Assembly (NCBI GenBank): GCA_043808285.1
Contig: JAZDFA010000015.1
Coordinates: 46,085 to 110,084 of the forward strand
From: an archaeon
GTDB lineage: Archaea > Nanobdellota > Nanobdellia > Pacearchaeales > DTIR01
DNA length: 64,000 nt
Reading direction: 5' to 3'
The translations under genes and the position numbers were made by a program. Positions within the stretch are counted from its first letter, which is position 1, and every line of letters starts with the position of its first letter. Below the pieces are notes generated by a model that did no database searches, was not told the DNA's origin, and saw nothing but the letters and a program-made list of their open reading frames with translations. Below, one piece after another: positions 2,949 through 32,678 of the stretch.

Positions 2949-2950
2949 AA

Positions 2951-3394
2951 ATGATATTTGTAACTGTTGGAACTGGCAAATTCGATTCAATTATAAAAGA
3001 GATAGATAGAATTTCCCCCACACTCAAAGAAAAGATAATTGCGCAAATAGGAAACGGAAAATACGTGCCTAAAAACTTCAAGTATTTCAGATTTAATCAA
3101 TCTCTTGATGAATATTACAAAAAATCTAAATTGATAATATCTCATGGGGGTGCTGGAACCATTTATGAGCTTCTCAAAATGAAAAAGAAGGTAATTGCAA
3201 TAGCAAATCTTGATAGAACTGACTCTCATCAGGAAGAGATACTAAATGCATTATCCCAAGAGAATAACTTGATATGGTGCAAAAACGTTAGAGAGATAGA
3301 AGGTATAATAAAAAAATCAAACTCTATTCATCTGAAAAAATATAAGAAACCTCAATGCATGATACATCATAAAATAAAGGAGTTTTTAGGATAG
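2951..3394 (+). CDS. Alg13-like catalytic subunit (GT28 C-terminal domain) of a split UDP-GlcNAc transferase
   Basis: MIFVTVGTGKF...ISHGGAGTIYE motifs. ATG at 2951 lies 2 nt after the Alg14-like stop. The ORF-track entry 2726..3394 is an over-extension in the same frame. Confidence 0.65.
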   Translation: MIFVTVGTGKFDSIIKEIDRISPTLKEKIIAQIGNGKYVPKNFKYFRFNQSLDEYYKKSKLIISHGGAGTIYELLKMKKKVIAIANLDRTDSHQEEILNALSQENNLIWCKNVREIEGIIKKSNSIHLKKYKKPQCMIHHKIKEFLG

Positions 3395-5234: not shown

Positions 5235-5235
5235 A

Positions 5236-12810: not shown

Positions 12811-14277
12811 TTAATCATTTTTAAAAAGAGATTTTTTAAGTTTCATTCCCAAAATTAAAAAATTTTTCAATCCAATTTTAGTTGTCTTAAGAGTAAAAAA
12901 GGAATAATTTATTTGGGAAATAAAATCAAAAAATTTGTTGGATGGAATTTTTATTATTTGTTTAATTAAAGGTAACAAAAAAGGAAATCTGACAGATAAA
13001 GAAAAAAATCGTTGTAAATTAATAATTTTATTGATATCCTTCATTTTTAAAGGAGTTTTTCCGAGTTGATATGAATTTCCAAAATCAGCTAATTTGAAAT
13101 CTTTTTTTAAAAAACCATTTTTTATAGCATCTTCTGCAATAAGGGTTTTAGGATATATTCTTAATACAGAACACCATGCAAAATCTGGTTTTAATTTTAT
13201 ATTGAATTCTATTGTTTCCAAAGCATTTTCTAAGGTTTCTTCTGGAATCCCAACCATGTTATATGTTTTGAGATATATTCTATATTTTTTGATTATCTTG
13301 CATGCATTTATTATAACATCATTTGATAAATTTTTATTTAATAATACATTTCTTATATGCTCATTTCCACTTTCAACGCCTAAAGCAATCGTGACGCAAT
13401 TGGCTTCTTTTAGGTGTTTAACAATATCCTCATCTATCAAATCTGCTCTAACTTCACAATTAAAGGGGAGATTTATTTCTTTTTTATATATCCTAAGAAA
13501 ATTTTTTAACCATTTTTTATCTAAAATAAATAAATCATCGTATATCATTAAACTTGAAAGTCCGAATTTTTCTTTAACATATTTTATTTCCTCAATCACT
13601 TTTTTAACACTTTTTTTTCTTACATATTTACCTTTTCCATAATAAAATTTCATAAATTCACTATTAAAACAAAAACTACAATTATATGGGCACCCCCTAA
13701 AAAAAACAAAATCCTTGCTTAGCTGATTTTTTAAAAATTCATATTTATAATAAATAGTCCTATCTGGAATAGGTAATTTATCTAAATCCTCTATTAAATT
13801 CCTGATTTCATTCTTAAAAATTTTATTATTATTTTTAATCCATAAATTTTTAATATTTATAATCTCTTCTCCTTTTTCTAATCTATTTAATAATTCGGTA
13901 ATTGCCCCCTCCCCCTCACCTAAACATATAATATCTACATAATCTTTATTGATTACCTCATCTGGATAAAAAGTTACATAAGGCCCCCCAAATATAATTA
14001 AGGATTTAACTTCTTTTTTAATTTTTTTTGCTAAATCAATCTCTTTTCTTTCTAATCCGGCAATTACTGAAAATCCAATTAAATCTGGCTGAATTTTTTT
14101 TAATTGTTCAATCAAATTTTTTTCTTCTGATGCTATAAATAAATCAACCTTATGACCTGATTTCTTTAAGCATGCTGACATACTCATTATACCAACTCTT
14201 GTAAATGGATCTGATTGTATAAATACTATTTTCATTTTATTTTCCATCTGTCGCAATAGAAACATTTTGAATTGCAT
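12811..14277 (-). CDS. B12-binding-domain radical SAM enzyme (class B)
   Basis: N-terminal B12-binding-like region (KIVFIQSDPF...GFSV) and CPYNCSFCFN radical SAM motif. Real start may be the internal MKIVFIQ Met near 14235. Confidence 0.8.
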   Translation of the reverse strand: MQFKMFLLRQMENKMKIVFIQSDPFTRVGIMSMSACLKKSGHKVDLFIASEEKNLIEQLKKIQPDLIGFSVIAGLERKEIDLAKKIKKEVKSLIIFGGPYVTFYPDEVINKDYVDIICLGEGEGAITELLNRLEKGEEIINIKNLWIKNNNKIFKNEIRNLIEDLDKLPIPDRTIYYKYEFLKNQLSKDFVFFRGCPYNCSFCFNSEFMKFYYGKGKYVRKKSVKKVIEEIKYVKEKFGLSSLMIYDDLFILDKKWLKNFLRIYKKEINLPFNCEVRADLIDEDIVKHLKEANCVTIALGVESGNEHIRNVLLNKNLSNDVIINACKIIKKYRIYLKTYNMVGIPEETLENALETIEFNIKLKPDFAWCSVLRIYPKTLIAEDAIKNGFLKKDFKLADFGNSYQLGKTPLKMKDINKIINLQRFFSLSVRFPFLLPLIKQIIKIPSNKFFDFISQINYSFFTLKTTKIGLKNFLILGMKLKKSLFKND

Positions 14278-14465: not shown

Positions 14466-14758
14466 CCTAAAACTCTAGACATTTTATATAGTTTTCTATG
14501 GCTTTTTGGCTTTTTAGTAAGCTTTAAATAATAAGCCTTTTTTAGAGAAGTTAATCGCTTTTTCGATTAAAAGAAATCTGATAAACCGCTTTATTCTGAA
14601 AAACTAGTAGGGCATAGGAATCCATACCACTCCATTCTATAATCTCTTATTTTATCTGGTATATTTATAATACTGCTGATAAATTATATTATAACTAAAA
14701 GAACTAAAATAGAACAGGAAGTCACAAGATTTAAAAGAAGAAGGCATACATTATTTTT

Positions 14759-15592
14759 ATGAATAAGATAAGAATCGGAGTAATTCCTGCAGCTGGAAAG
14801 GGAGGTAGAATAAGTCCTCTTTCTAAGATACTCCCAAAACCAATGATCCCAGTATTAGATCAGCCTATTCTAGAATTTGTAATAAAAAGAATGGTATATG
14901 AATTTGGCATTGAAGAAGTGTATCTTATAGTTGGCCATATGTCTGATGTTATAAAAAATTATTTTAAAGATGGAAAAGAAATAGGTATAAAGATAAAGTA
15001 TGTATACCAAAACGATCCCAAGGGTATCGCCCAGGCCATAGGCCTAACTGAAAAATACATAAAAGAGCCATTTATGGTTATGTTGGGGGATGATTTTACA
15101 ATAGGATCTACAAAAGAATTAATGAACACTTTCTTCAAAAAAAATGCTTATGTTGTAGAGGCGATGATTAATGAAGAAGACAAAACAACACTAAAAAGAA
15201 CTTGCTGCGCTAGAATAAATAATGAAAAAAAGATAGAAGAGATTATAGAAAAACCAAAAAATCCTATATCAAATATACGGGGTTGCGGCATTTATATTTT
15301 TGACCCCATAGTATTTGATTATCTGAAAAAAATGCCTGCAAGTGCTGAAGAAAAAGGGATAACCGAAATTATAAGAGAGATTTCAAAAGACGGAAAGGCA
15401 TATGGGGAGCTATTAAAAGGTGTTAATGTGAATATAAACACAAAAGAAGATCTCTTTTTAGCAAATCTTATTCTTGCGCATATACTTGAAAAAGAAAAAA
15501 AGATAGATATGGAAAAAATTAAAAGATTCTTGGAAAGAAAATACAATGAGAATAATAACAGTTTTTTTAAAAAGATGGGAATTATAAAGTAA
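14759..15592 (+). CDS. Sugar-1-phosphate nucleotidyltransferase (RmlA/GlmU N-terminal-like)
   Basis: GVIPAAGKGGRISPLSKILPKPMIPV signature. Confidence 0.8.
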   Translation: MNKIRIGVIPAAGKGGRISPLSKILPKPMIPVLDQPILEFVIKRMVYEFGIEEVYLIVGHMSDVIKNYFKDGKEIGIKIKYVYQNDPKGIAQAIGLTEKYIKEPFMVMLGDDFTIGSTKELMNTFFKKNAYVVEAMINEEDKTTLKRTCCARINNEKKIEEIIEKPKNPISNIRGCGIYIFDPIVFDYLKKMPASAEEKGITEIIREISKDGKAYGELLKGVNVNINTKEDLFLANLILAHILEKEKKIDMEKIKRFLERKYNENNNSFFKKMGIIK

Positions 15593-18660: not shown

Positions 18661-18670
18661 ATTTTCCTAA

Positions 18671-19339: not shown

Positions 19340-19368
19340 ATTGTAGATCAGTTGAGACATCTTAAAAA

Positions 19369-20364
19369 ATGAAAGCAATATTAGACCTAAAAACTATCTT
19401 AAGATTTATAGGATTACGTTTATTTAATCGATCTTTTCCTTTTTCAGTAAATCTAATCATAAATTACAACTGCAATTATAGATGTAAATATTGCAATTCT
19501 TACAATACTAAAAAAAAGGAGATGACTACTAAACAAATTTTCAAAATGCTTGACGAATTTAGTGAACTTGGAACTAAAAGATTAGGGATTACTGGGGGTG
19601 AACCGCTATTGAGAAAAGATATTGGAAAAATAGTAGATTATGCAAAAAAGAAGGGAATGAAGACAACTCTCACTACAAATGGCTCTTTGGTTCCGCAAAA
19701 AATAAAAGAACTAAAGAATCTTGATCTGCTTTTGATAAGTTTTGATGGTCCAAAAGAGGTTCATGATAAATACAGAATGAAAGGTTCTTATGAAAGTGTT
19801 ATCCGGGCGATCAAAATAGCAAAAGAAAATGGGATTAATGTCTGGACTACTACTGTGATAACGAATCTTACTGAAAACAATATAGAATTTGTTGTAAAAA
19901 AGGCTAGAGAGATGGGATTTAAGTGCCTATTCCAGCCGGTTTATCATTATTCCTATTCTTCAAATAAAGATACAATAGAAGGAATGTCTGCAAAAAAGGG
20001 ACAGCACAAAATGCTAGTCCAAAAAATAATCGAGCTAAAAAGAAAAGGAGCCCAAATAGCAAATTCTTATCATTACTTAGATTACATTCTAAAATATTGG
20101 CCGGATAAGATTCATGGAAAATGTTATGCTGGAAAATTTTATTGTGGCGTTGATTCAAATGGAGAAGTTGCACCTTGTTCCCTGATATTCGGAAAGTATA
20201 AATGGACCAATGGTGTAAAGTTTGGATTTAAAGAAGCATTCAAAAAAATAAAACAAATTCCATGCAAAGGTTGCTTCTGTGTATCTTTTGTAGACATGAA
20301 TCTACTAAATTCTTACTTAACACCTGAGATAATAATCAATGCATTAAAGGATTATAATTTCTAA
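19369..20364 (+). CDS. Radical SAM enzyme with SPASM/twitch domain
   Basis: CNYRCKYCNSY motif and C-terminal Cys cluster (VAPCSLIF...CKGCFC). Confidence 0.8.
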   Translation: MKAILDLKTILRFIGLRLFNRSFPFSVNLIINYNCNYRCKYCNSYNTKKKEMTTKQIFKMLDEFSELGTKRLGITGGEPLLRKDIGKIVDYAKKKGMKTTLTTNGSLVPQKIKELKNLDLLLISFDGPKEVHDKYRMKGSYESVIRAIKIAKENGINVWTTTVITNLTENNIEFVVKKAREMGFKCLFQPVYHYSYSSNKDTIEGMSAKKGQHKMLVQKIIELKRKGAQIANSYHYLDYILKYWPDKIHGKCYAGKFYCGVDSNGEVAPCSLIFGKYKWTNGVKFGFKEAFKKIKQIPCKGCFCVSFVDMNLLNSYLTPEIIINALKDYNF

Positions 20365-20365
20365 A

Positions 20366-21244
20366 ATGATATTTGTAACTGGAGCAAGTGGATTCTTAGG
20401 GAAGTATGTTGTAAACGAATTGCTAAAATGTAATGAGAAAATAAGATGTTTTTCTAATTCAATTGGAAACTTGCCTAAAAATAATAGGATAGAAATCGTA
20501 ATCGGCGATATAAGAGACAAAGAAGCTGTTAACAAATATGTGAAAGGGGCAAAGTATATAGTGCATTTAGCAGCCGCCTTAAATCCCTACATAACTGGAG
20601 ATTTATATGAAGTAAACATTAAAGGAACAAAAAATCTAGTGGATGCTGCGAAGAAATACAAAATAAAAAAGTTTATTTTTGTAAGCTCTGAAGGTGCAGT
20701 ACAACAATTTGATGAATATGGTAAAAGCAAAATGAAAGCAGAATCAATTGTAAAAAGTCTAAAAAATTATGTCATAATACGACCCACGGTGATTTATGGT
20801 GCTGGAGACAGGAAGAACATCAGTAAACTTATAAAAATTGTTAAAAATTCACCCTTTGTTCCGTTATTCAAGAATGGAAATAACAAACTCCAGCCAGTAT
20901 ATGCTGGAGATGTAGCTGCTGCAATAAAAAATGCTTTGTCTATGGGAAAAGGAACTTACTTCGCAGCTGGAAAAGAACCCCTCTCTTTAAACGAAATAAT
21001 AACAGTCATTGAGTCCTGCTTGGGTATTAAAAGAAGGATAAGAATAAGGATCAATTTAAAGTTAATCAAAATAGTTGTTGCATTAATGAGATTCTACAAA
21101 GGCAAGATGATAAGCCCGAATCTAATAAGCCCAAATATAATAGAATACTTCTCAAAAGATCAAATTTATGACATAAGCAAGACTATAAAAGAATTAAATT
21201 ATAAACCTCTAAGTTTTTATGAGGGAATAAAAAAGTCGATATAA
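20366..21244 (+). CDS. NAD-dependent epimerase/dehydratase (extended SDR)
   Basis: MIFVTGASGFLGKYVVNELL Rossmann motif. Confidence 0.75.
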   Translation: MIFVTGASGFLGKYVVNELLKCNEKIRCFSNSIGNLPKNNRIEIVIGDIRDKEAVNKYVKGAKYIVHLAAALNPYITGDLYEVNIKGTKNLVDAAKKYKIKKFIFVSSEGAVQQFDEYGKSKMKAESIVKSLKNYVIIRPTVIYGAGDRKNISKLIKIVKNSPFVPLFKNGNNKLQPVYAGDVAAAIKNALSMGKGTYFAAGKEPLSLNEIITVIESCLGIKRRIRIRINLKLIKIVVALMRFYKGKMISPNLISPNIIEYFSKDQIYDISKTIKELNYKPLSFYEGIKKSI

Positions 21245-21296
21245 GCTATTTCTCAAGTTAGATTATATTTAAAAAGTAAGAAGAAATTAGGATAAT

Positions 21297-22364
21297 ATGA
21301 AAAACGAAATATTGATGGTTGGAGGTATTTTAAAAAGCAAATTGGTAAAAAAACCATACAAACTTAATTTTGCCGTTACATCTTTATGTAACAGCAAATG
21401 TACTACTTGTAACATCTGGAAAACTTATAAAGATAACCCAAAAAAATTAAAAGAAGAATTAAACTTAAAGGAAATCCAAGAGATATTCTCAAAGCTACCA
21501 AAAACAATTATCTGGTTGAGTCTCACGGGGGGGGAGCCCTTTCTAAAAGAAAATTTTGAAGAAATAATCATTTCTGCAATGAAAACTATGAATAATTTAA
21601 GGATGATAAGTATCCCTTCAAATGGTTTGGCTACTGAAAGAATCCTAAAAATGGTAAACAAGATAATGAAAACAAAAAAGGAGATAAGGATAATCGTCAC
21701 ATTAAGCATAGAAGGCCCTGAAAAGATACACAACAAAATAAGGGGGGTGGGGGATGGTTTTAAAAAATCATGGGAAACCTACGAAAAGCTAAAGGAACTT
21801 TCAAAAAAATACAAGAACTTTAATGTCTCAATTGAGACTACCATCTCAAAATATAATATAGATTATCTTCCGCAATTTATTGAAAAATTAATTAAGGGGG
21901 GGAATGAATTGACTCTTACTATTGCACATAATGCCGCTCTTTACAAGAATGAAAAAAATAGCAAATTGATGCCTTCTCAAATAAACAAGATAAAAAAGAT
22001 AGTACAAATAGCAATAAATGGAAAAAAATATCTCAATCCAAAAAATAGAATAGAATCAATATTCCTAAAAAACCTCCCAGAATATGCCATTAATCCTAAA
22101 AAGAGTGTAATGCCCTGCTATGCACTCAAATCTTCAATTTCTCTTGATCAAAATGGGAATGTCCTGCCTTGTCTTATGTGGGGAATGAATCTTGGGAATG
22201 TAAGAGACTATGGATATGATATAAAAAGGATAATCTCTTCAAAAAAAGCTTTTTGTGTAATGAACACGATAAAAAACAAGAGATGTCCCAATTGCTGGAC
22301 ACCTTGTGAGGGATACCAAAGTGTAATTGGTAATCTTATAAATATGAAAATATCTCCTTTCTAA
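21297..22364 (+). CDS. Radical SAM enzyme with SPASM/twitch domain
   Basis: CNSKCTTCNIW motif, GGEPF motif and C-terminal Cys cluster (VLPCLMWG...CPNCWTPC). Confidence 0.8.
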   Translation: MKNEILMVGGILKSKLVKKPYKLNFAVTSLCNSKCTTCNIWKTYKDNPKKLKEELNLKEIQEIFSKLPKTIIWLSLTGGEPFLKENFEEIIISAMKTMNNLRMISIPSNGLATERILKMVNKIMKTKKEIRIIVTLSIEGPEKIHNKIRGVGDGFKKSWETYEKLKELSKKYKNFNVSIETTISKYNIDYLPQFIEKLIKGGNELTLTIAHNAALYKNEKNSKLMPSQINKIKKIVQIAINGKKYLNPKNRIESIFLKNLPEYAINPKKSVMPCYALKSSISLDQNGNVLPCLMWGMNLGNVRDYGYDIKRIISSKKAFCVMNTIKNKRCPNCWTPCEGYQSVIGNLINMKISPF

Positions 22365-22365
22365 A

Positions 22366-23112
22366 ATGCTCAAAGTATGTCTTGTTATAGATGTTGAAAG
22401 ATTTATCTCATTTAAACAGAATAATCCTGAATGGAATGTGCTTCAAAATCTAAAAAAGATACTTGCTTACTTGCTTAGGGGATTCCTTTATGACCAGAGA
22501 GGTTATGAAAATACTTATAAGATTATATGCAAGCATAGATTTCCAGTTTCATTTATGTTAGTAGGAAGCTTATTCAAACCATTAGAAAAAAAGAATTTTA
22601 TTGATTATGGGTATCATACCTATAGTCATAAACCTCTGACATATCTCCCAGATAAAAAGATACTGGGGGAAATTAAGAATATTTACAATGCAGTTAGCTT
22701 TTCGGCCCCCATGAATCTAATTGATGATCCATTAAAACCTGACAGAATATTAAAGATGCTTAAAAAAGAAGGATATAAAATTATTATTTGGGGTGGTTCA
22801 ACTATAAGGAATAAAAAAAATAAGATTGTTGTAGTTCCTTCAAGAAAAAATATAGTAGAACCAAAGACAGTTGAAGGAATAAAATGTGTTTACATAAGCA
22901 ATCTATTTAATGATAAAACCCCCAAGGAAAATATAATTAAAATGCTGGAAGAGATTGAGCAGAATTCTGGTAAAGAGTCAGTCTATTGCATAACAACACA
23001 TGAATTCTCCCATAAAGATACTTCAAATCTTGAGTATATAATAAAAAGGCTTATTGAACTTAAGGATCAAGGCAGGATAAAAATAGTAAATCTTAGAGAT
23101 ATTGCAAAATGA
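22366..23112 (+). CDS. Putative polysaccharide deacetylase-like (CE4-like) enzyme
   Basis: HTYSHKP resembles the CE4 H[ST]xxHP motif; N-terminal LVIDVE in place of the canonical TFDDG. Weak call. Confidence 0.35.
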   Translation: MLKVCLVIDVERFISFKQNNPEWNVLQNLKKILAYLLRGFLYDQRGYENTYKIICKHRFPVSFMLVGSLFKPLEKKNFIDYGYHTYSHKPLTYLPDKKILGEIKNIYNAVSFSAPMNLIDDPLKPDRILKMLKKEGYKIIIWGGSTIRNKKNKIVVVPSRKNIVEPKTVEGIKCVYISNLFNDKTPKENIIKMLEEIEQNSGKESVYCITTHEFSHKDTSNLEYIIKRLIELKDQGRIKIVNLRDIAK

Positions 23113-23244
23113 AAGAAGTCAAAGAAGTAAGAATATCCCTAAAAAAGATATAGAAAAGGTAGGAGAGATAATCTCAGTTTTTATGAAAGGAAAAAATATT
23201 TTTTCACCCATAACTTTTTTAAACAAGGCATTTGTAGGCTTGAT

Positions 23245-24690
23245 ATGAGAATAATACTCTTAAACTTAAGATCAGATTATACTGGATTCCCATTAGGACT
23301 CGCATACTTATCAGCATGTTTAAAAAAAGCGGGTTTTAAAGACATCAAAGGGATAGACTTGGGGATTGATTCTGAAAAAAATCTTTTAGAGTATATCGAA
23401 AAAGCAGACATATTGGCAATGTCTGTTATGACGAGGAATTATTTTGACGCTATAAGAATATCTAAAAAAGCTAAAAAAATAAATCCTGGTCTAAAAATAA
23501 TAGTTGGTGGTCCTCATCCTACGGTATGCTCAGAAGATATGATGCAGCCTAGTATAGATTTTATAGTAATTGGTGAAGGAGAGATTACAATAGTAGAACT
23601 ATTAAAGAATTTATCAAATAATAAACAAGACCTTTCAGAAATTAAAGGGGTGTGGTATAGATCAAATAATAAATGGAATAAAAATAAAAAAAGAGATTTC
23701 ATAAAAAATTTGGATTCTCTCCCATTTCCAGATCATGAGATATTCCAGATAAATAGATATAATTTCGGTATGCTCAAACATTTTTATAAGCCTCCAATCC
23801 CAATAATAACTTCTAGGAGCTGCCTATATAATTGTGCTAATTGCCAACCAGCTTTATCAAAAATAGCTGGTTCTTTTAGACAAAGGAGTATTAAAAATGT
23901 AATAGAAGAAATAGAATTTCTTATAAAAAAATATAGATATAGAAAATTTGGATTCAATGATAATGATATAACCACTGACAAAAAATGGATAAAAGAATTT
24001 TGTAGAGAGATTATCAGAAAAAAGCTGAAGATTGAATGGGGGGCTAATGCCAGAGCAACTAATATGGACGAAGATGTTATGAAACTGCTCAAAAAATCTG
24101 GCTTTAAAATGTTTTTTATGGGAGTAGAAAGTGGTTCTCAGGAAATTCTTGATAACGTCTTAATAAAAGGAATAACTATTGAAAGAGTTAAAGAAGTTGT
24201 AAACAATGCAAGAAAGGTGGGAATTTCTCCACAATGCAGTTTTATGATTGGTATTCCTGGCGAAACGAAAGAACAAATGCAACAAACTCTTGATTTAGCT
24301 GTAAGTCTAAAGCCAGACATAGCATTCATTTGCCCTGTTGTCCCTTATCCGGAAACGAGATATGAAAAGATACTGAAAGATAAGGGGTGGCTACTGAGTA
24401 ATTCTCATTTTGAATATGGCAATGGGATAAGTATGAGCTATAGAACAGATTATTGGGATAGTTCTTTTCTTGAAGAAATGAAGAAAAAATGTGTTAATCT
24501 ATTTAATAAAAGAGGATATATAGAAATAGATAAAACTTCTACTGGCACAATGGTATTTTACAATGTAAGATCGAACAAAAAAAGGTTATTTATTCTTTTA
24601 GGAAAAGAGATTATTTACTTCAATAAAGATAAAGATATAAGACTACATGTAAAAAATGTTGGGATAATCTTTAAAAATTTATTTCTTTAA
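23245..24690 (+). CDS. B12-binding-domain radical SAM enzyme (class B)
   Basis: N-terminal B12-binding-like domain and SRSCLYNCANCQ radical SAM motif. Confidence 0.8.
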   Translation: MRIILLNLRSDYTGFPLGLAYLSACLKKAGFKDIKGIDLGIDSEKNLLEYIEKADILAMSVMTRNYFDAIRISKKAKKINPGLKIIVGGPHPTVCSEDMMQPSIDFIVIGEGEITIVELLKNLSNNKQDLSEIKGVWYRSNNKWNKNKKRDFIKNLDSLPFPDHEIFQINRYNFGMLKHFYKPPIPIITSRSCLYNCANCQPALSKIAGSFRQRSIKNVIEEIEFLIKKYRYRKFGFNDNDITTDKKWIKEFCREIIRKKLKIEWGANARATNMDEDVMKLLKKSGFKMFFMGVESGSQEILDNVLIKGITIERVKEVVNNARKVGISPQCSFMIGIPGETKEQMQQTLDLAVSLKPDIAFICPVVPYPETRYEKILKDKGWLLSNSHFEYGNGISMSYRTDYWDSSFLEEMKKKCVNLFNKRGYIEIDKTSTGTMVFYNVRSNKKRLFILLGKEIIYFNKDKDIRLHVKNVGIIFKNLFL

Positions 24691-24753
24691 ATATAATGCG
24701 TTTCACAAGATTTAAATGTACTCTTGGATATTCTGTTAAATCTTACTAGATAA

Positions 24754-25428
24754 ATGGCAATTAAATGGGGATATACAAAAAAAGGAAAAATGCAATTTCA
24801 AGATTTTGTTGAAACGATTGAAGTAGACTTGACAAAACCAATAGAAAAATTAAAGAACGCTCTAGATAAAGATGCCAGATGGGGCATAAATAAAGCGATA
24901 AAAGAAGGGCTTACAGTAAAAGAAGCTGATGAAAAAGAGGTAAAAGAATTCTATGAGATTTATAGAGAGATGTGTAAAAGGAATGAGATTAAAATGCATG
25001 ACTTAAATGAGATTATCCTAAATAATCCTCCTTCCTACAACAGAAAAATATTTGTGTGCAAAAAAGGAAACAAAATTATCTCTGGAGTTTCAATAACTGA
25101 GAATAAAACAAATGGTATAATTAGCCTTTATGTAAATGCGTCTAATCCCGAATACCTAAAATTTCAGCCAAATAACTTGTTGTACTGGAGTATAATAGAG
25201 CATGGAAAAAGGATAAATGCAAAAACATTTGATTTGGGCGGCTACGATGCAACCGCTGAGAAAGGTTCTAAAACATATGAGATAAATCGATTTAAAGAAA
25301 GGTGGGGAGGTAAGATAGTCAAATATCCTGTTTACAGCAACAATCCTTTCTATATACTGGGAAGGAAGATTATAAGGAATTCTTCTTTTTTGAGAAGATT
25401 ATTCAAAAAAATAAAACAAAAAAATTAA
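24754..25428 (+). CDS. FemAB-like / GNAT-fold acyl- or aminoacyl-transferase (putative)
   Basis: Resembles the FemAB/Acetyltransf_6 C-terminal domain (...FDLGGYDATAEKGSKTYEINRFKERWGGKIV). Confidence 0.35.
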   Translation: MAIKWGYTKKGKMQFQDFVETIEVDLTKPIEKLKNALDKDARWGINKAIKEGLTVKEADEKEVKEFYEIYREMCKRNEIKMHDLNEIILNNPPSYNRKIFVCKKGNKIISGVSITENKTNGIISLYVNASNPEYLKFQPNNLLYWSIIEHGKRINAKTFDLGGYDATAEKGSKTYEINRFKERWGGKIVKYPVYSNNPFYILGRKIIRNSSFLRRLFKKIKQKN

Positions 25429-25454
25429 AAGTTTATTCTAGGAGCTTAAAAAAA

Positions 25455-26558
25455 TTAGTGGATCCCATATCTGAAATAACACTTTTTGCATGATTCATTG
25501 AGGTCTCTCTTATTATCATATCTCAATGTTTTATAATTACGGTTATTCCATATCTTTTCTATTGACTCTTCATTTAGGTTTCCTAGAATAACTGAAGGCA
25601 TAGTTGTTTCTTTTTTTATCAAGTTGCCTTCATCGATACAAAAGAAATGTTTTCTGGTATCTCTAAAATGTGGGCAGCAGCATACATCTCCATTAATAAA
25701 AAGCATCATCATTTCCCATATAAAAGGACAGGAGCACTTAGAAGTGTTTACTCCAAATATTTTGGGGAGTCTTATTGGCATATTAAGATCCTTTGCTAGA
25801 TTTTCGGTTTCATCAAATATTCTTTTTATATCTCCTTTGTCAAGATTGAATAAAGAACTCTTTACAGAATCCTTATTATGACAAGTAAGTGCAGTAAACC
25901 ACACATTGTCTGCTCCGATTTTCTTTGCAAATCTTACAATAGAAGGCATTTCTTCTATATTCTCCTTTTGCGCAGCAAAACCAATAGCAATTGTTGGTGT
26001 TTTACTCTTCAATTGTCTCTTCCTTTCACATATTTCTCCTAGATGTTGCATAACAATATCAAAAGGAGAGTGCGGAATTGGACGTATCTTCTCATATACC
26101 TCTTTTTTAAGAGAATCCAAAGAGATATCCATGCTATCTGTTCTGTATTTGAATGTTTTCTCTATATTCTCTTTGGTTAGAAGTAACCCATTTGTTGTAT
26201 AATGCACTTTTATTCCGAAGCTTTTAAGATAATTGTGAATCTGCCAAAATTCTGGATTCAACAATGGTTCACCTAAACCTGCCCCTAAGGTGATAAAATT
26301 AACATAAGGCAGTATTGGTTCTAATTTCTTAAAATAAGAAAGAGGCGTATGCTTGTTTAATATCCCTTTAGACATAACACTCCTTTCACATCTTGGGCAC
26401 TCCATATTACACGTGGTGGATAGTTCTATTTGGAGATAAGAAGGATAATATCTTGCTCTTGAGGGGTAGAACTTTCTATAAAATGACTGAAGAACTAGGT
26501 TGCTGTATCTTCTAGGGTATCTTACAGCCCTTGCAAATCTTCGCAACACCTTTTTCAT
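25455..26558 (-). CDS. Radical SAM enzyme with SPASM/twitch domain
   Basis: CNMECPRCE motif and C-terminal CCCPHF...CKKC Cys cluster. Confidence 0.8.
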   Translation of the reverse strand: MKKVLRRFARAVRYPRRYSNLVLQSFYRKFYPSRARYYPSYLQIELSTTCNMECPRCERSVMSKGILNKHTPLSYFKKLEPILPYVNFITLGAGLGEPLLNPEFWQIHNYLKSFGIKVHYTTNGLLLTKENIEKTFKYRTDSMDISLDSLKKEVYEKIRPIPHSPFDIVMQHLGEICERKRQLKSKTPTIAIGFAAQKENIEEMPSIVRFAKKIGADNVWFTALTCHNKDSVKSSLFNLDKGDIKRIFDETENLAKDLNMPIRLPKIFGVNTSKCSCPFIWEMMMLFINGDVCCCPHFRDTRKHFFCIDEGNLIKKETTMPSVILGNLNEESIEKIWNNRNYKTLRYDNKRDLNESCKKCYFRYGIH

Positions 26559-26725
26559 TCTCCCATAATCTCTAAGAGATTTATAAAACTTGTTAATCCA
26601 AGATGTAAAAAATTTAATAAAAATAGATTCAAGCCTAGAGGAGGTGGCAAGATAGTAAAATATCTGGTTGATATCAAGAATCTATTTTACATTATTGTAA
26701 GAAAGATACTTAGAAAATTTTCCTC

Positions 26726-27835
26726 TTAAGAGCAGATTTTTTTGCATAGCTCCTTAAATTTATCCTGAAAATTTTTCGTGCTGTACTCTCTTGCTTTTTT
26801 TACTGCATTTCTGCTCATCTTTTCTCTCAATCCCTCATTCTCAATAAGAAAAGTTATAAAATCCTGGGCCTCTTCAGGATTATTGAATAGGAATCCGGAT
26901 TTCTTATGCTCAACTATCTCTTTTTGTCCCCCCCCATTAAACACCACTGGAACAGCACCTTGAGCCATTGCTTCTGCAGTAACCATCCCGAAATGTTCCA
27001 TCTCCTGCGGCTCTTTTAGCTCATTTCTTCCATATCCCTTTGCATGAAAGAATATCTTTGACTTGGAATAATTTTCCCTAAGCTTTGAACTCTCTAAATG
27101 TCCTGCAAATCTGACTGGAAAATTCTTTGCTTCCTTCTTTAATCCTGAAAAATCCCCCTCTCCGCAGATTAGATATTCATAATCTCTGTGCTTTTCTGAA
27201 ATTTTTTTGAAGCAGCTTATCATAAAAGAATAATTCTTATCCTTTGCTATCCTTCCAGCACTCAGGATGATGTTTAATTTTTTTCTTTTTATCCTATCTA
27301 TATCTATAGGCGGATTAAGAACAAAAGCATTGATGATCCATAACATCTTAAGCCATCTCTTGGTATACTCTGAATTGCAAAGCACCAAATCATAGCTTCT
27401 GGAGTGATTACCATAGAGGGTTTTAATCAATGCATATCCCAGCAGTATAATTCCATCGGCAAGATTTCTAGCATTTCGGTAAATCTTTCTTTCTGGAAAA
27501 TGAAAGTAGATTATGCTTTTTCTGCTCTGGGGGATTACTGTCTCATGATTTGAATTGATAAACAAATCATAATTTGAAGAGATTCTTGATACTTTGCCTG
27601 CTGAAAGAGTATGGAAATAGCTTTCTTTTTTATAATCTTTTGAATTGAATAAGAAGATTAAGTTCACTTTTGAAAGGTCTGCAGAATAAATTTTTTCAAG
27701 ATCCTTTTTATCAACATTATACAAACTGAGTAATTCTACCTTATGATTTTCAGAGAGGGCTTCCGCCATCTTTATAAAAACTTTTTGCCCTCCGCCTATT
27801 CTATGCATTGCCCATTCATATATGCAGATATTCAT
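26726..27835 (-). CDS. Family 4 (GT-B) glycosyltransferase
   Basis: EHFGMVTAEAMAQGAVPVVFNGGGQKEIV motif. Confidence 0.8.
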   Translation of the reverse strand: MNICIYEWAMHRIGGGQKVFIKMAEALSENHKVELLSLYNVDKKDLEKIYSADLSKVNLIFLFNSKDYKKESYFHTLSAGKVSRISSNYDLFINSNHETVIPQSRKSIIYFHFPERKIYRNARNLADGIILLGYALIKTLYGNHSRSYDLVLCNSEYTKRWLKMLWIINAFVLNPPIDIDRIKRKKLNIILSAGRIAKDKNYSFMISCFKKISEKHRDYEYLICGEGDFSGLKKEAKNFPVRFAGHLESSKLRENYSKSKIFFHAKGYGRNELKEPQEMEHFGMVTAEAMAQGAVPVVFNGGGQKEIVEHKKSGFLFNNPEEAQDFITFLIENEGLREKMSRNAVKKAREYSTKNFQDKFKELCKKICS

Positions 27836-27887
27836 GTAATAACTCTAACAAAAAGCTATATAAATATTATTTTGATTTACTTCTTTA

Positions 27888-29117
27888 ATGAGAGTTTGCC
27901 ATGTAACGAATAATCTTGTAGGGTATCATAAAGCCTGGGGAGGGGCTGAGCAAGCCGCCGATAGGATTATAAGGCTTCTTGAAAAAAATGGTATTGAAAA
28001 TATGGTGCTTGCAACAAAACCTTTAAGAGAAGTAAAGGAAAGTTTTGAGTTTTATTCTGTCCCAGTGATCCAGGATTTTATTGGAGAGCACCTTGGCAGC
28101 CTTTTCAAAAGGCCCTATGACCTAGTAGCTTACAATTATTGCTACAACCTTCTTAAGGAAAAGAAACCAGATTTAGTCCTGCTTTATAACTTTGGGAATA
28201 TAGGTTTTGGCGTTATACTAGCTGCAAAGAAACTGAATATCCCAGTAATATTTATTGCATGTGACTTCTGGTTTTTATGCCCCTTGCAAACTCTGATAAA
28301 AAAAGATGGCACAAATTGCACCGATTTTCACAGTTATAGATGTATAGACTGCTTAGAGAATAAAAGAGACCTCCTTCAAAAGATATCTTTAAGATGGAGA
28401 AAGAATCTTTTCGACAAATATTTTTTCAGCAAAGTGGACAGGATAATTGTTCTTGCAGATTATTGGAAGGACCTTCTTAAAAAATATGGCTTGTCCCAAG
28501 AAAAGATCAAAGTAATCCCTCTGCCATTAAAAAAAGAGAGAGTTAAGAAAGAGAAAGTTGAAAAGGATTCTATATTATACACTGGCTGGATTGTCCCAAG
28601 AAAAGGTCTTCATATTGTTCTTGAAGCAATGCCAGAAATATTAAAGAAAATTCCTAATATAAAATTGTATGTGATTGGTGAAAATGACCCCTCAGAAATA
28701 GAGTACAAGAATAAAATAGACAAAATAATCTCTGAAAATAAGCTTGAGAAAAATGTCTTTCTTCTTGGCAAAAAGCCCTACAAGGAAGTTCAAAGGATAG
28801 TGCAAAAATCAGAGTTGGTTGTTGTGCCAGAACAATGGCAGATTGCCCTGTCTACATTTATGAATGAGGCAATGATTTATGGAAAGCCTGTTGTTGCAAG
28901 CAGAATAGGGGGAATTCCGGAGTATCTCCAAGATGGAAAATGTGGCCTTCTTGCAGAACCAAGAGATTCTAAGGATTTTGCCCAGAAGATTATAAACCTT
29001 CTGAAAAATAAGCAAAGGGCTAAGAATATGGGAAGAAATGCTGCCCTGTTCATGTCTAAAAAAACAGATGAGAGAAAAATCTTTGACGAGTTGAACAATG
29101 TTTACAAAGATTTATAA
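27888..29117 (+). CDS. Family 4 (GT-B) glycosyltransferase
   Basis: FMNEAMIYGKPVVASRIGGIPEYLQDG motif. Confidence 0.8.
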   Translation: MRVCHVTNNLVGYHKAWGGAEQAADRIIRLLEKNGIENMVLATKPLREVKESFEFYSVPVIQDFIGEHLGSLFKRPYDLVAYNYCYNLLKEKKPDLVLLYNFGNIGFGVILAAKKLNIPVIFIACDFWFLCPLQTLIKKDGTNCTDFHSYRCIDCLENKRDLLQKISLRWRKNLFDKYFFSKVDRIIVLADYWKDLLKKYGLSQEKIKVIPLPLKKERVKKEKVEKDSILYTGWIVPRKGLHIVLEAMPEILKKIPNIKLYVIGENDPSEIEYKNKIDKIISENKLEKNVFLLGKKPYKEVQRIVQKSELVVVPEQWQIALSTFMNEAMIYGKPVVASRIGGIPEYLQDGKCGLLAEPRDSKDFAQKIINLLKNKQRAKNMGRNAALFMSKKTDERKIFDELNNVYKDL

Positions 29118-29158
29118 GAGATTTATAGCATAATTTATAATTCAATTTATATTCAAAA

Positions 29159-30358
29159 ATGATACAAGAATTAAAGTTTTACGTTAATGTTTTAAGCAAG
29201 GGTATGAAGTATAGGAGTCATTTTCTTAAGCAGATAAATTATCTTATAAAAAAAGGAAAATTCAGGAATGCCTACAACTATATCTGGGACTTCACCATGA
29301 GCGATGAAGAGGGAGTAGGATTGCTTAGCCCTATTTACAGAAGAAACCCCATGTTAGTCCCCTATCCCAGCAGGCTTGAACTAGAACCCACAAATGCTTG
29401 CAATCTTAAATGCATAAAATGCGAGCATACTTATTGGAAAGAAAAAGAAAAGAAGATGACTTTTGAGCAGTTCAAATATATTATAGACCAATTCCCCCAC
29501 CTTAAGGCAATAAGCCTCACGGGAATAGGGCATGCGTTCCAGGGAGATAATGAGGTGTTTAAAGAAGAATACCTCAAGATGCTAAGGTATCTTAAATCAA
29601 AACAGATTTTTGTACAATTCTTTGATCCCTTCTTACACATAAATGAGAATCTTGCAAGAGAGCTTATAAAAATAGGAGTTGATGTAATCTGGATGTCAAT
29701 AGATGGAGCAACAAAAAAGACCTACAACAAGCTCCAGATAAATTCAGACTTTGACACGGTAATAAAAAACGTCTCTACTATGATAAGGCTCAAGAAAGAG
29801 ATGAAATCAATGTTCCCGGAAATACACTTCCATTACATTGTCCAAAAGCTTAATGTTGATGAAATGCCGCAGTTTGTTGACCTCATAAATAAGATAACAA
29901 AAGACGACCCCACAGATCAGCGTTCAATAAGATTTACTAGACTTATTCCTTTTGAAAAAAATCTATGGCTAAAGCCGGAAGTAAGTGATGAGCTTATTGA
30001 AGAGACGAGGAAAAAGATAAGCAAATCAAAGAATCTCTTCAGAATAGGATTCCCATTGGCTGAGAAAAAATCTCCAATAAACTGCTGCACTTCCTGGGCT
30101 GTGCCATTCATAACTGTTGATGGCAGTGTATATCCCTGCTGTGGTTTCACAGAATTAAACAAGAGATCAGAAGTGAGAAAGATGCTTGAGCCAATATTCG
30201 GCAATGTATTCAAAAAGCCTTTCAAAGAAATATGGAACTCAAAACAATTTAAAGAGTTTAAGATTATGATACATAATAATCAAGTTCCCGCAGTTTGTAA
30301 TACTTTCAGAGAATGCCCAGCATTCGCAACTGGATGCATTGCAAAAAGAAAAAAATGA
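29159..30358 (+). CDS. Radical SAM enzyme with SPASM/twitch domain
   Basis: CNLKCIKCEH motif, closest paralog of 1349..2371 (EPTN.CNLKC); C-terminal VYPCCGF...CPAFATGC cluster. Confidence 0.8.
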   Translation: MIQELKFYVNVLSKGMKYRSHFLKQINYLIKKGKFRNAYNYIWDFTMSDEEGVGLLSPIYRRNPMLVPYPSRLELEPTNACNLKCIKCEHTYWKEKEKKMTFEQFKYIIDQFPHLKAISLTGIGHAFQGDNEVFKEEYLKMLRYLKSKQIFVQFFDPFLHINENLARELIKIGVDVIWMSIDGATKKTYNKLQINSDFDTVIKNVSTMIRLKKEMKSMFPEIHFHYIVQKLNVDEMPQFVDLINKITKDDPTDQRSIRFTRLIPFEKNLWLKPEVSDELIEETRKKISKSKNLFRIGFPLAEKKSPINCCTSWAVPFITVDGSVYPCCGFTELNKRSEVRKMLEPIFGNVFKKPFKEIWNSKQFKEFKIMIHNNQVPAVCNTFRECPAFATGCIAKRKK

Positions 30359-31275
30359 AATTCTTGATTACTGGTGGTGCAGGATTTATAGGAAGCCATA
30401 TAGCAAGAGCGCTTATTTCTGAGAATAAATGCAAGCCTGAAGATATAACTGTTTTTGATAATCTTAGTGTTGGAAAGGAAGAGAACATCCCTAAAGGATG
30501 CAAGTTCATAAAAGGAGACTTGAAAAATAAAGAGGAGATTATGAATGCTCTTAAAGGGATAGATCTGATATTCCATAATGCTGCATTTGTTTCTATCCGG
30601 GGCAGTTTTGAAAAATTAAGAGAAGAAATAGACACCAATTGCTCCGGCACATTGAATGTTTTTGAAGCCTGTCTTAAAAATAAGGTGAAGAAGGTGGTTT
30701 TTGCATCCTCCATGGCAGTATATGGAGAGCCAATAAATCTGCCTGTGGATGAAAAACACCCCCTTAATACTATCTCTCCCTATGGGTTGAGTAAAATAAG
30801 AGGAGAGATGTACTGCAGGATATTTGAAGAGCAGGGAATAGACTATGTAATACTGAGATACTTCAATACCTATGGAACAAAGCAGACTCCTTCCCCCTAT
30901 GTGGGGGTTATAACTACTTTTATTAATCAGGCTATTGATAAAAAGCCAATTACAATTTATGGTGATGGCAATCAAACAAGAGATTTTATCTGGGTAGAAG
31001 ATATCGCAAAGGCAAACTTGCTTGCAGCCTTCTCTAAAAAAAATGGAGTCTATAATGTTGCAAGCGGAACTGAAATCTCAATAAACCAAATAGCAGAAAA
31101 GATAATAGAATCAATTGGAGGGGGGAAAGAATATCTTCCAAATCCGTTTGGAGAGATAACTAGAATAAAGGCGGACATCTCTCTCATAAAAAAAGATTTG
31201 GGTTTTAAGCCTGTTGGCAAGGTATTGGAAAAAATATCGGAATTAGTGGATTTCTGGAGAAAACAGAAGAAATAA
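30355..31275 (+). CDS. NAD-dependent epimerase (UDP-hexose 4-epimerase-like SDR)
   Basis: MKFLITGGAGFIGSHIARALI. ATG 30355 overlaps the upstream stop (ATGA); the track ORF is over-extended to 30313. Confidence 0.75.
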   Translation: MKFLITGGAGFIGSHIARALISENKCKPEDITVFDNLSVGKEENIPKGCKFIKGDLKNKEEIMNALKGIDLIFHNAAFVSIRGSFEKLREEIDTNCSGTLNVFEACLKNKVKKVVFASSMAVYGEPINLPVDEKHPLNTISPYGLSKIRGEMYCRIFEEQGIDYVILRYFNTYGTKQTPSPYVGVITTFINQAIDKKPITIYGDGNQTRDFIWVEDIAKANLLAAFSKKNGVYNVASGTEISINQIAEKIIESIGGGKEYLPNPFGEITRIKADISLIKKDLGFKPVGKVLEKISELVDFWRKQKK

Positions 31276-31280
31276 CCAAT

Positions 31281-32678
31281 ATGAAAGTTTTATTTATACT
31301 TCCAGAAATTGGCTCCTATATCTCAATGCACCCAGGTATCGGGCAACTTTCTTCAGTTCTAAAAAAAGCAGGGCATAAAACTGACTTAATAGAATTTGGA
31401 AAATATGATATAAATCAAGTTTTCAGCAAGATTGATTCATGGAAGCCAGAAATAATTGCAATTTCAATAAATACCCACATGTTTTCCTATACTAAAAGAA
31501 TAACTAAAGAGATAAAAAGCAAATATCCTAATATGAAGATATTTGTCGGGGGAGTTCATATGAAGTTGTCCCCCGAATCTATAAATGAGTTGGAAGTTGA
31601 TGGTGTCTGTATAGGTGATGGAGATAATAAATTTCTTGAACTTGTAAATAAGATAGCAAAAAAACAGAACTATCTTAAAACTGGGAATTTCTGGTTTAAG
31701 AAAGGAAAAAAGATAATAAAAAATCCAATAACAGACTTTGCAGAGGATTTGAATAAACTTCCCATACCAGATTACTCTATCTTTAAGGAATTCAAAAGAA
31801 ATGGCAAAGAGGTCATCCCCCATTTTATGTTCTCAAGAGGATGCCCATTTAATTGTACGTACTGCTGCAATAGTGCCTTAATAAAAAAATTTCCCAATCC
31901 CTCCAAGTATGTTAGGATGCTAAGTGTCAAAAGAGTCATGGAAATTATGGATTATTTCGAGAAAAATTATAAGTTTAACCATTTTGAGATAGATGATGAT
32001 ACTTTCTCCCTAAATAAAAAATGGATATTGGAATTCTGCAGGGAATTCAAGAAAGGGTTCAAGAAAACATTTGTATGCAATATAAGAGTTGAAACTGCAG
32101 ATGAAGAGATTCTGCAGTCATTAAAAGATGCTGGTTGTGTGTTGATAAAAGTGGGTGTTGAAACAGGCAATGAAAATCTCAGAAAGACAATACTTGGAAG
32201 ATTTATGAAAAATGAGCAGATAATCAAGGTTTTTGAAATAGCAAGAAGAATAGGATTGAAAACATGCACATTTAATATGATTGGTGTTCCGGGTGAAACA
32301 AAGCAGACAATATTAGACAGCATAGAACTTAACAAGAAATTAAAGCCAGACTACATGCAAGTATCTCTTTTCTATCCATATAAAAATACCCCGCTTTATA
32401 ACACATGCATAAGAAATCATTATATTAGGGAAAAAGTAAAAGAAGAGGCGTTCACAGATTATTTTAAAGACAGCATACTTAACCTTCCAACCATCTCAAG
32501 AAAAGAACTAATCCATTATAAGAAGTATTTTAAGTTCAACATTTACAGAAGTTATTCTATGGAAAAGGCGTTTGTCTCCCTTATTGTGGATAGCAAAATT
32601 TACAGATCATTAAGAGGCACTAAAATTCTTTCATTAATTAAAAAAATGAAAAATGCTGTAATACCAGAAAAGAGGTAA
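31281..32678 (+). CDS. B12-binding-domain radical SAM enzyme (class B)
   Basis: N-terminal B12-binding-like domain and SRGCPFNCTYCCNS radical SAM motif. Confidence 0.8.
   Translation: MKVLFILPEIGSYISMHPGIGQLSSVLKKAGHKTDLIEFGKYDINQVFSKIDSWKPEIIAISINTHMFSYTKRITKEIKSKYPNMKIFVGGVHMKLSPESINELEVDGVCIGDGDNKFLELVNKIAKKQNYLKTGNFWFKKGKKIIKNPITDFAEDLNKLPIPDYSIFKEFKRNGKEVIPHFMFSRGCPFNCTYCCNSALIKKFPNPSKYVRMLSVKRVMEIMDYFEKNYKFNHFEIDDDTFSLNKKWILEFCREFKKGFKKTFVCNIRVETADEEILQSLKDAGCVLIKVGVETGNENLRKTILGRFMKNEQIIKVFEIARRIGLKTCTFNMIGVPGETKQTILDSIELNKKLKPDYMQVSLFYPYKNTPLYNTCIRNHYIREKVKEEAFTDYFKDSILNLPTISRKELIHYKKYFKFNIYRSYSMEKAFVSLIVDSKIYRSLRGTKILSLIKKMKNAVIPEKR

Follow-up and report, generated by a model that had tools for sequence, protein, structure and literature searches.

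The question raised by this locus is whether a gene trio that occurs in it twice is one cassette that was copied. The window analysed (64,000 nucleotides of contig JAZDFA010000015.1, assembly GCA_043808285.1, from an archaeon of the Pacearchaeales) carries two trios in which a short-chain dehydrogenase/reductase (SDR) gene stands between two genes for radical S-adenosylmethionine (rSAM) enzymes; these are 19369, 20366 and 21297 (trio 1) and 29159, 30355 and 31281 (trio 2), genes being named here by the first of their window coordinates. An initial annotation of the sequence had given both trios one strand and the order rSAM-SDR-rSAM, in agreement with the open reading frames (ORFs), which all lie on the forward strand, and had proposed that they represent a duplicated nucleoside diphosphate (NDP)-sugar cassette, the third gene of which had been swapped between a SPASM-type and a B12-binding enzyme. 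We consider it probable, though by no means assured, that the trios are not copies but slices of two sub-operons in a ~37-kb archaeal surface-glycan island; block B would be a conserved core plus a lineage-specific B12-rSAM, block A a backbone with a variable slot, and the whole a site of radical sugar tailoring with slot turnover.

Comparison of the two trios

All proteins of the locus were compared with one another by BLASTP. The first genes of the trios, 19369 and 29159, aligned with 24% identity over 140 amino acids (37 bits) and the SDRs 20366 and 30355 with 28% identity over 280 amino acids (69 bits), while no similarity was found between 21297 and 31281 (0 bits); orthologues in sister loci, by comparison, scored 422-451 bits. 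Aligning the family profile of 19369 with that of 29159 gave only 20% identity, which bears out a shared superfamily ancestry. For each gene, the best paralogue in the window lay outside the other trio: 19369 paired with 21297, 30355 with 9771, 29159 with 1349 (29% over 319 amino acids, 118 bits) as well as 25455, and 31281 with 12811 (33% over 422 amino acids, 249 bits). The two SDRs belong to different subfamilies (20366 NDUFA9/HpnA-like, 30355 GalE/WbpP-like), and the trio regions share no DNA repeat, only AT-rich chance matches of 25-36 nt. Since the corresponding proteins resemble each other at the generic family level only, an outcome that the initial annotation had itself set down as speaking against its proposal, the duplication is rejected. 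The trios were not kept as units in relatives either; a synteny search returned one sister locus (L171) that lacks the SDR of trio 1 and another (L174) that lacks the B12-rSAM of trio 2. Judged from these alignments, the two trios are separately assembled slices of different co-directional sub-operons and not copies.

Gene order was also shuffled across the 33 genes of the island (nine rSAM, four SDR). The order rSAM-SDR-rSAM came up twice on the same strand in 0.2-0.6% of the shuffled orders, or in 2.3% if any strand was allowed, and the count of rSAM/SDR adjacencies in the same shuffles was ordinary (P = 0.14). Because the trio pattern was picked after the data had been seen, it amounts to mild non-randomness only.

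The six ORFs match the deposited annotation (MFH1249417-19 and MFH1249426-28), the start of 30355 included, and the Pfam classes of 20366, 21297, 29159, 30355 and 31281 are those named at the outset. The CxxxCxxC motif was intact in all rSAMs, and both the four rSAMs of the trios and the nine of the island could be assigned to the radical SAM superfamily. Against the Pfam SPASM model, 21297 scored 23.5 bits (cut-off 21.5) and 29159 48.6. The class B assignment of 31281 was supported by matches to PF02310 (62.7 bits, cut-off 32.1) and PF04055 (88.5 bits), and the protein is a predicted cobalamin binder. Both SDRs contain the GxxGxxG and YxxxK motifs, as GASGFLG and Y118GKSK in 20366 (101 bits against Pfam Epimerase) and as GGAGFIG and Y143GLSK in 30355 (199 bits); neither reached an equivalog cut-off, and 20366 is probably a ketoreductase or epimerase. 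The SPASM label given to 19369 is approximate: the protein has no Pfam SPASM match, but a 50-sequence alignment of its family contains an invariant C-terminal pattern of SPASM/twitch type, C252...G265x4C270...C299xxC302xC, on account of which the label is roughly right.

Stop/start spacings of 0-6 nt had been reported for every junction, along with probable translational coupling of each triplet. This was correct for three of the four junctions (1 nt at 20364/20366, a 4-nt ATGA overlap at 30355-30358 and 5 nt at 31275/31281), at which tight coupling is plausible, but not for 21244/21297, where the spacer measures 52 nt. This spacer is AT-rich and carries a TATA-like TTATATTT ~30 nt ahead of the ATG of 21297; it may be an internal archaeal promoter. 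A scan with bacterial promoter and terminator models, the host being archaeal, gave counts equal to those in shuffles. Each trio belongs to a longer co-directional block, trio 1 to 17959-25428 (block A) and trio 2 to 27888-32678 (block B).

Conserved core and variable positions in the two blocks

Relatives of 29159 were surveyed in 80 metagenomic loci. The closest of them lie in the order glycosyltransferase family 4 (GT4, 27888-like), nucleotidyltransferase (NTase, 14759-like), rSAM and SDR, as seen in L087, L125 and, in part, L085. Orthologues of 30355 (53-68% identity, or 53-61% if L174 is set aside) directly follow the rSAM in L085, L087, L125 and L174, with an overlap of 4 nt in L085 and L087 and of 25 nt, as called, in L125, and with a 57-nt spacer in L174; GT4 and/or NTase genes lie upstream of the rSAM-SDR pair in all four loci. 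An orthologue of 27888 (63%) directly precedes the rSAM in L174, and the corresponding place in L087 and in L125 holds homologues of 35-40% identity. A 29159-type rSAM followed by a 30355-type SDR, with GT4 upstream, was thus common to the window, L174, L125, L087 and L085. On this comparison the conserved unit starts upstream of the trio that was originally delimited, at 27888; the GT4-NTase-SPASM rSAM-SDR cassette is a grouping defined in this analysis and not a curated family. The NTase of the window (14759) sits outside the cassette formed by 27888-31275; it is 34-40% identical to the NTases found between GT4 and rSAM in L087 and L125, and it matches RmlA-long, archaeal GlmU and AglF-like families, each below cut-off. 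Within three genes on either side of 29159-family members (n = 59 loci), GT4 was present in 64%, SDR in 54%, NTase in 44% and B12-rSAM in 42%; around the more distant relatives these gene classes again fall within three genes, but in a rearranged order.

The third position of trio 2 is variable. L174, a syntenic sister locus of 55-68% identity, has GT4, rSAM and SDR followed by a 488-amino-acid gene of the Phosphodiest family (Pfam PF01663), and 31281 is absent from this position in L174, L087 and L085. In the window, tblastn with the L174 protein detected fragments of such a gene directly behind 31281 (57% over 44 amino acids at 32686-32817 and 58% over 26 amino acids at 32814-32891). Since L174 has the Phosphodiest gene at this place and the window a decayed copy of it, 31281 is a lineage-specific occupant of the third position.

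Block A showed an equivalent turnover at its SDR. The syntenic sister locus L171 (57-77% amino acid identity) has, in order, a 16286-like gene on the reverse strand, GT2, methyltransferase, a 19369-like rSAM (72%), a 473-amino-acid B12-rSAM, a 21297-like rSAM (57%), a 22366-like gene (57%) in its same position, a 23245-like rSAM (67%) and, on the reverse strand, a 25455-like gene. The place of 20366 can therefore be regarded as a slot with variable content; in L171 it is taken by the B12-rSAM, and no SDR remnant was found there. The arrangement of the window exists elsewhere too, since on another contig a 71%-identical 20366-type SDR is followed by a 352-amino-acid rSAM. In L165 and L167, SDRs of the 20366 type (37-40%) share a 4-nt overlap with the class-B-like rSAM upstream of them, a protein of ~430 amino acids that is not of the 19369 type; behind the SDR of L167 come genes for a GT2, a PMT_2 GT-C protein and a flippase. 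The 20366 subfamily thus appears to partner radical enzymes, with the partner changing. The B12-rSAM in the L171 slot was considered as an orthologue of the class-B-like rSAMs in L165 and L167 and rejected, the identity being only 26-29%.

Relatives of 19369 behaved differently from those of 29159. A genome scan with the generic pattern GGEPLLRxD gave 80 loci, most of them generic MoaA-like, with ~12 true members (33-54% identity) from Woesearchaeota, Iainarchaeota, Omnitrophota, Planctomycetia, Methanosarcinales and Myxococcota. An SDR directly downstream was found in none of these ~12, and within three genes of a family member in 1 of 38 loci (3%); the recurrent neighbours were B12-rSAMs, other MoaA-like rSAMs, GT2s and large unannotated proteins. 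Three bacterial loci, L002 (GCA_040960315.1, JBFOMO010000003.1, 5822-13652), L017 and L010, have four to seven consecutive rSAM or B12-rSAM genes around a 19369-type enzyme, together with unannotated proteins of 600-1,100 amino acids, a recurring multi-rSAM arrangement; among the fetched ORFs, glycosyltransferase matches were absent from L002 and L017, and three weak GT2-like ones occurred in L010.

An exhaustive profile search placed 1,971 representative clusters in the 29159 family at E<=1e-30, or ~2,000 clusters at 50% identity, in DPANN archaea, candidate phyla radiation (CPR) bacteria and many other anaerobes. Ten long members were examined, and eight of these proved to be fusions with glycosyltransferase domains: five have Anp1-like domains, two have GT4 and one has methyltransferase plus GT2; P0248 is also a fusion. 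Inteins are carried by the other two long members and by one of the Anp1-like fusions; in P0380, P0411 and P0416, inteins (Intein_splicing, Hint, LAGLIDADG) lie in or before the rSAM domain. It is conceivable, although we would not count on it, that the SPASM rSAMs of the 29159 type form a large family, so far uncharacterised, of radical enzymes dedicated to glycans which, with a GalE-like SDR, an NTase and a GT4, make and install an undescribed radical-modified surface sugar, and that the island of the window encodes a heavily radical-tailored archaeal glycan.

The surrounding island

The island (about 300-37700) has 33 genes, nine of them coding for rSAMs and four for SDRs, plus one rSAM remnant (Table 1). 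It also contains an Alg14/Alg13-like pair, an AsnB-type amidotransferase, GT2 and GT4 enzymes, three methyltransferases, two NTases, a FemAB-like protein, a flippase, a UDP-glucose dehydrogenase and two polytopic membrane proteins (16286 and 11063). Alg13 and Alg14 are the split uridine diphosphate N-acetylglucosamine transferase pair of eukaryote-type N-glycan synthesis.

Table 1. Coordinates and assignments of features in and around the two blocks (window positions).
Coordinates	Strand	Feature	Domain evidence or remark
306..1343	-	Cupin-fused NTase (N-terminal cupin)	Adjoins 1349-2371
1349..2371	-	Third W-maturase-like SPASM rSAM	Beside NTase 306-1343
2448..3394	+	Alg14-like ORF (2448-2948), then overlapping Alg13-like ORF	Glyco_tran_28_C (Alg13-like ORF)
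5146..6699	+	Class-B-like rSAM	HpnJ-like, 215 bits (below cut-off)
12811..14277	-	Class B (B12-binding) rSAM	Closest paralogue of 31281
14759..15592	+	Sugar-1-phosphate NTase	Pfam NTP_transferase 118.6 bits
17959..18660	+	GT2, AglJ/ArnC/PpgS-like polyprenyl-phosphate sugar synthase type; first gene of block A	Pfam Glycos_transf_2 121.8 bits
18671..19339	+	Class I SAM methyltransferase	Pfam Methyltransf_11
19369..20364	+	rSAM, first gene of trio 1	Pfam Radical_SAM 110.5 bits; no N-terminal peptide-recognition extension
20366..21244	+	Short extended SDR, NDUFA9/HpnA/3-beta-HSD-like, middle gene of trio 1	Pfam Epimerase/3Beta_HSD
21297..22364	+	rSAM/SPASM, third gene of trio 1	Pfam Radical_SAM + SPASM
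22366..23112	+	248-amino-acid protein without assigned function	Conserved partner of 21297 and 23245
23245..24690	+	Class B (B12-binding) rSAM	Pfam B12-binding 81.9 + Radical_SAM 85.3 bits
25455..26558	-	SPASM rSAM, W-maturase-like clade	Paralogue of 29159 and 1349
27888..29117	+	GT4 glycosyltransferase, first gene of block B	Pfam Glycos_transf_1 123 bits
29159..30358	+	SPASM/twitch rSAM, first gene of trio 2	Pfam SPASM 48.6 + Radical_SAM 36.3 bits
30355..31275	+	GalE/WbpP-like extended SDR, NDP-hexose 4-epimerase/dehydratase type	Pfam Epimerase 198.9 bits
31281..32678	+	Class B (B12-binding) rSAM, third gene of trio 2	Pfam B12-binding 62.7 + Radical_SAM 88.5 bits
32686..32891	+	Remnant (pseudogene), type I phosphodiesterase/nucleotide-pyrophosphatase family, just after 31281	Intact counterpart follows the SDR in L174

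The GT2 that opens block A has its best NCBIfam matches in AglJ, PgfS and ArnC-like families, all under cut-off, and its orthologue in L171 is 71-76% identical. The 248-amino-acid protein 22366 has a weak match to Pfam Polysacc_deac_1 (E = 0.005, below cut-off) and none among the solved structures of the PDB. The TTG start listed for 5146 puts the first 89 nt of the gene inside the AsnB-like gene 3402-5234, and the true start is probably further downstream; the protein groups with class B rSAMs though Pfam finds no B12-binding domain in it. The 481-nt gap at 14278-14758 holds most of a 69-codon ORF on the reverse strand (14232-14441) that overlaps the start of 12811-14277; it ends ...FDITFKCNSKCFYCDRWKIK, carries the rSAM CxxxCxxC motif and matches the N-terminus of 21297 (44% over 27 amino acids). 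In all probability a tenth rSAM gene, of SPASM type, has left this remnant.

To the right of the island lie SecD/F, tRNA genes, a lone 5S rRNA gene, an archaeal ribosomal-protein operon with RpoD and, beyond it, PolD; the annotation of the PolD large subunit, the 4Fe-4S domain of RpoD within the ribosomal-protein operon and the lone 5S rRNA mark the host as archaeal. The 5S rRNA gene (42993-43104, forward strand) stands between the tRNA genes and the ribosomal-protein operon, with no 16S or 23S gene nearby. A 91-nt tRNA-like gene on the reverse strand (42114-42204; Rfam tRNA, 46 bits), for which ARAGORN gave the four-base anticodon 'ctaa', is probably an intron-containing archaeal tRNA. A tyrosine recombinase with a Phage_integrase domain and an N-terminal SAM-like domain, probably XerA-like, lies at 49141-49959 on the reverse strand and is adjoined by a 254-amino-acid protein without Pfam match; the GC content dips to 0.287 at 50-52 kb.

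Proposed sugar tailoring, rival explanations and known systems

Of the original idea of a duplicated sugar-tailoring cassette, the sugar-tailoring part stands, on the strength of the sugar context and of the conserved, overlapping 29159-30355 pair with its NTase and GT4; the duplication does not. We regard sugar tailoring as plausible, with support mainly for that pair. From gene content, conservation, fusions and slot turnover, all of which were read directly from the loci, we infer the following route. The core of block B comprises a GT4, often a sugar-1-phosphate NTase, a 29159-type SPASM rSAM and an overlapping GalE-like SDR, and the backbone of block A a GT2, a methyltransferase, a 19369-type rSAM, the variable slot, a 21297-type rSAM, the 248-amino-acid protein and a B12-rSAM. 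A hexose-1-phosphate would be activated by the NTase to an NDP-hexose, on which the SDR would perform NAD(P)-dependent C4 oxidation/epimerisation or keto-reduction; a SPASM/twitch rSAM could then take a hydrogen from the sugar, leading to dehydrogenation, epimerisation at an unactivated carbon, dehydration or decarboxylation. Class B rSAMs may add C-methyl groups (by the logic of GenK/GenD1) or dehydrate (by that of AprD4/AprD3), and the tailored sugar would be put on a lipid-linked glycan by the GT4. Turnover of slots among relatives would give rise to glycan diversity.

Other explanations of the arrangement were weighed against this one. That a single ancestral SPASM rSAM-SDR-rSAM cassette for an NDP-sugar was duplicated within the locus, its third gene being swapped later, is very improbable: the same class order recurs on the same strand within 13 kb, three of four boundaries are tight, and two such trios are uncommon in random gene order, but the similarity is of superfamily level, closer paralogues lie elsewhere, the SDR subfamilies differ, no DNA similarity is shared, in sister loci trio 1 is without its SDR and trio 2 without its B12-rSAM, and the 19369 family is nearly never near an SDR (1 of 38). 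We think it rather unlikely that the trios are pure coincidence, nine rSAMs among 33 genes having let SDRs fall between them by chance without rSAM-SDR coupling in either trio. The ordinary adjacency count and the post hoc choice of the pattern agree with chance, as do the slot replacement in L171, which indicates that the flanking rSAMs do not need the SDR, and the lack of SDR association in the 19369 family; evidence against coincidence comes from the 29159-30355 pair, which several distant metagenomes keep with overlapping stop and start, from the enrichment of SDRs near the 29159 family (54%, versus 3% for the 19369 family) and from the overlap of 20366-type SDRs with an upstream rSAM in L165 and L167.

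A different substrate is also conceivable, if unlikely: block A, and perhaps class B rSAMs generally, might act on a lipid-linked sugar or lipid head group and not on a soluble NDP-sugar, in parallel with the hopanoid side-chain enzymes HpnH, HpnA, HpnI/K and HpnJ or with a calditol-type ring contraction. HpnJ is the best NCBIfam match of 5146 (215 bits), 31281 (138) and 12811 (122) and ties with BchE for 23245 (201 versus 203), HpnA is the best match of 20366 (103), and HpnH is among those of 19369 (83.5); 17959 looks like a polyprenyl-phosphate sugar synthase, the polytopic membrane proteins 16286 and 11063 are present, 22366 has its weak deacetylase match, relatives of 19369 cluster with GT2s, B12-rSAMs and large unannotated proteins and not with NTases, and the 20366-type SDR of L167 precedes GT2, GT-C and flippase genes. 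Every one of these Hpn scores falls far under the curated cut-off (225 bits for HpnH, 368 for HpnA, 578 for HpnJ), however; the class B matches are equally near BchE and PhpK, block A has no lipid-synthesis genes, and Archaea are not known to make hopanoids. Lastly, the SPASM enzymes could be maturases of RiPPs (peptides that ribosomes make and that are modified after translation) or of metalloenzyme cofactors, merely sited in a glycan island, as the presence of PapB, SkfB, SuiB, CteB and a tungsten-enzyme maturase among the top NCBIfam and fold matches would allow. This is highly improbable: no plausible small RiPP precursor-like ORF was found beside any SPASM gene, 19369 and 21297 start ~30 amino acids before the cluster motif, leaving no room for a peptide-recognition domain, glycan genes fill the context, family members are fused to glycosyltransferases, and the maturase family cut-offs were not reached. 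A RiPP maturase system was accordingly rejected on the missing precursor and the short N-termini of 19369 and 21297.

Radical sugar tailoring in two sub-operons with variable slots remains the reading that we prefer, and several observations weigh against it. No enzyme reaches any NCBIfam curated cut-off, so that the proposed substrates and reactions are putative: 19369 scores 138 bits against the PTO1314 family (cut-off 306), 29159 141 against W_rSAM_matur (380), 30355 174 against GalE (262; its PDB match 6dnt gives 210 bits) and 20366 103 against HpnA, its best PDB match being NDUFA9 at 63 bits, of a weak NDUFA9/CapD type; 23245, at 203 bits for BchE and 201 for HpnJ, is below both cut-offs, as is 5146 for HpnJ. 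Fold searches with the models of 19369 and 29159 fail to separate sugar-acting from peptide-acting rSAMs, the scores of SkfB, SuiB, CteB and anSME being similar to those of BlsE, DesII and viperin. Two rSAM-flanked SDRs are somewhat unlikely in random order (permutation P = 0.002-0.02), so SDRs may have a functional affinity for rSAM neighbours in general; distant 20366 homologues are indeed coupled to an rSAM, albeit of a different class. In addition, neighbours were classed by comparing crudely called ORFs of the fetched loci with window proteins by BLAST, the two family surveys drew on different collections (genomes and metagenomes), and a single sequencing run yielded both L171 and L174, possibly from one organism.

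With the failure of the duplicated-cassette claim, no consequence follows from it, and the interest of the locus lies in its density of rSAM genes and in the conserved cassette; its kind, a glycan island with radical tailoring enzymes, is already known. It illustrates how slot turnover in glycan islands can produce gene trios which look alike at the domain level. A widespread unit of GT4, NTase, SPASM rSAM and SDR, uncharacterised so far and with Rosetta-stone glycosyltransferase fusions, is delimited as well, and these four genes offer a concrete starting point in the quest for new radical sugar chemistry, both in anaerobes and in archaea and bacteria with small genomes. A literature search found no described system of rSAM or SPASM enzymes with an NTase or glycan genes in archaea or DPANN, and broader searches gave nothing relevant either, which is not proof of absence.

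Among characterised enzymes, BtrN and DesII are rSAMs that oxidise or deaminate a sugar or thymidine diphosphate-sugar, the substrate of DesII being an NDP-sugar. They are the only solved structures best matched by the 29159-family profile (5e-10 for the auxiliary-cluster domain of BtrN; 1e-5, 28 bits, for the core of DesII), and the family has an auxiliary Cys pattern of twitch/SPASM type. The matches are nevertheless weak and partial, with fold template modelling (TM) scores of 0.4-0.56, no better than those of peptide maturases. The AlphaFold model of 29159 (predicted local distance difference test, pLDDT, 92) has no close fold neighbour, the best TM scores being 0.5-0.6 (SkfB, BlsE, viperin, SuiB, DesII). 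An assignment to the DesII type is not supported, the match being to the core only at TM 0.5; no aminotransferase occurred among the island genes scanned, and no aminotransferase or 4,6-dehydratase partner, as in the DesI/DesII route, was found beside 29159. BlsE, a cytosylglucuronate decarboxylase and twitch rSAM, is the nearest full-length fold to the AlphaFold2 model of 19369 (pLDDT 92; TM 0.71/0.72 over 329 columns), followed by viperins. The two are of similar size and without a peptide-recognition domain, and BlsE acts on a nucleoside-sugar; the sequence identity, however, is 17%, viperins and PqqE score alike, and no function is transferable.

For the class B enzymes, the apramycin pathway offers one parallel: AprD4, an rSAM diol dehydratase, works with the NADPH-dependent reductase AprD3 in C3-deoxygenation (PMC5461906). 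The likeness consists in an rSAM followed by an NAD(P)-dependent reductase acting on a sugar hydroxyl, and in AprD4 being the best solved-structure match of 31281 (5e-19). It differs in that nothing beyond the rSAM core (residues 180-393) is matched, in that 31281 has a clear B12-binding domain match, in that AprD4 acts on an aminoglycoside pseudodisaccharide, and in that 31281 is no conserved partner of the SDR; scores against the AprD4 family NF033070 (85.6 bits for 31281, 77 for 12811 and 127.6 for 5146) stay below the cut-off of 500. GenK and GenD1 are class B rSAMs that methylate sugar carbons (PMC5461906), and 31281, 23245 and 12811 share with them the combination of B12-binding and Radical_SAM domains and the setting in a sugar pathway. 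No match is at the equivalog level, however, the best ones of the class B enzymes being HpnJ, BchE, PhpK and ApyD at 120-215 bits, under the cut-offs, and methyl transfer is putative.

At the level of the whole locus, the closest likeness is to variable surface-glycan islands, namely archaeal agl clusters and bacterial O-antigen and capsule loci, which share with the island NTases, SDRs, glycosyltransferases, methyltransferases, a flippase, an Alg13/14-like pair and the replacement of slots between close relatives. None of these rSAM genes is known as a characterised component of a described agl pathway, and what distinguishes the island from such loci is its unusual rSAM load, nine genes and a remnant in ~37 kb.

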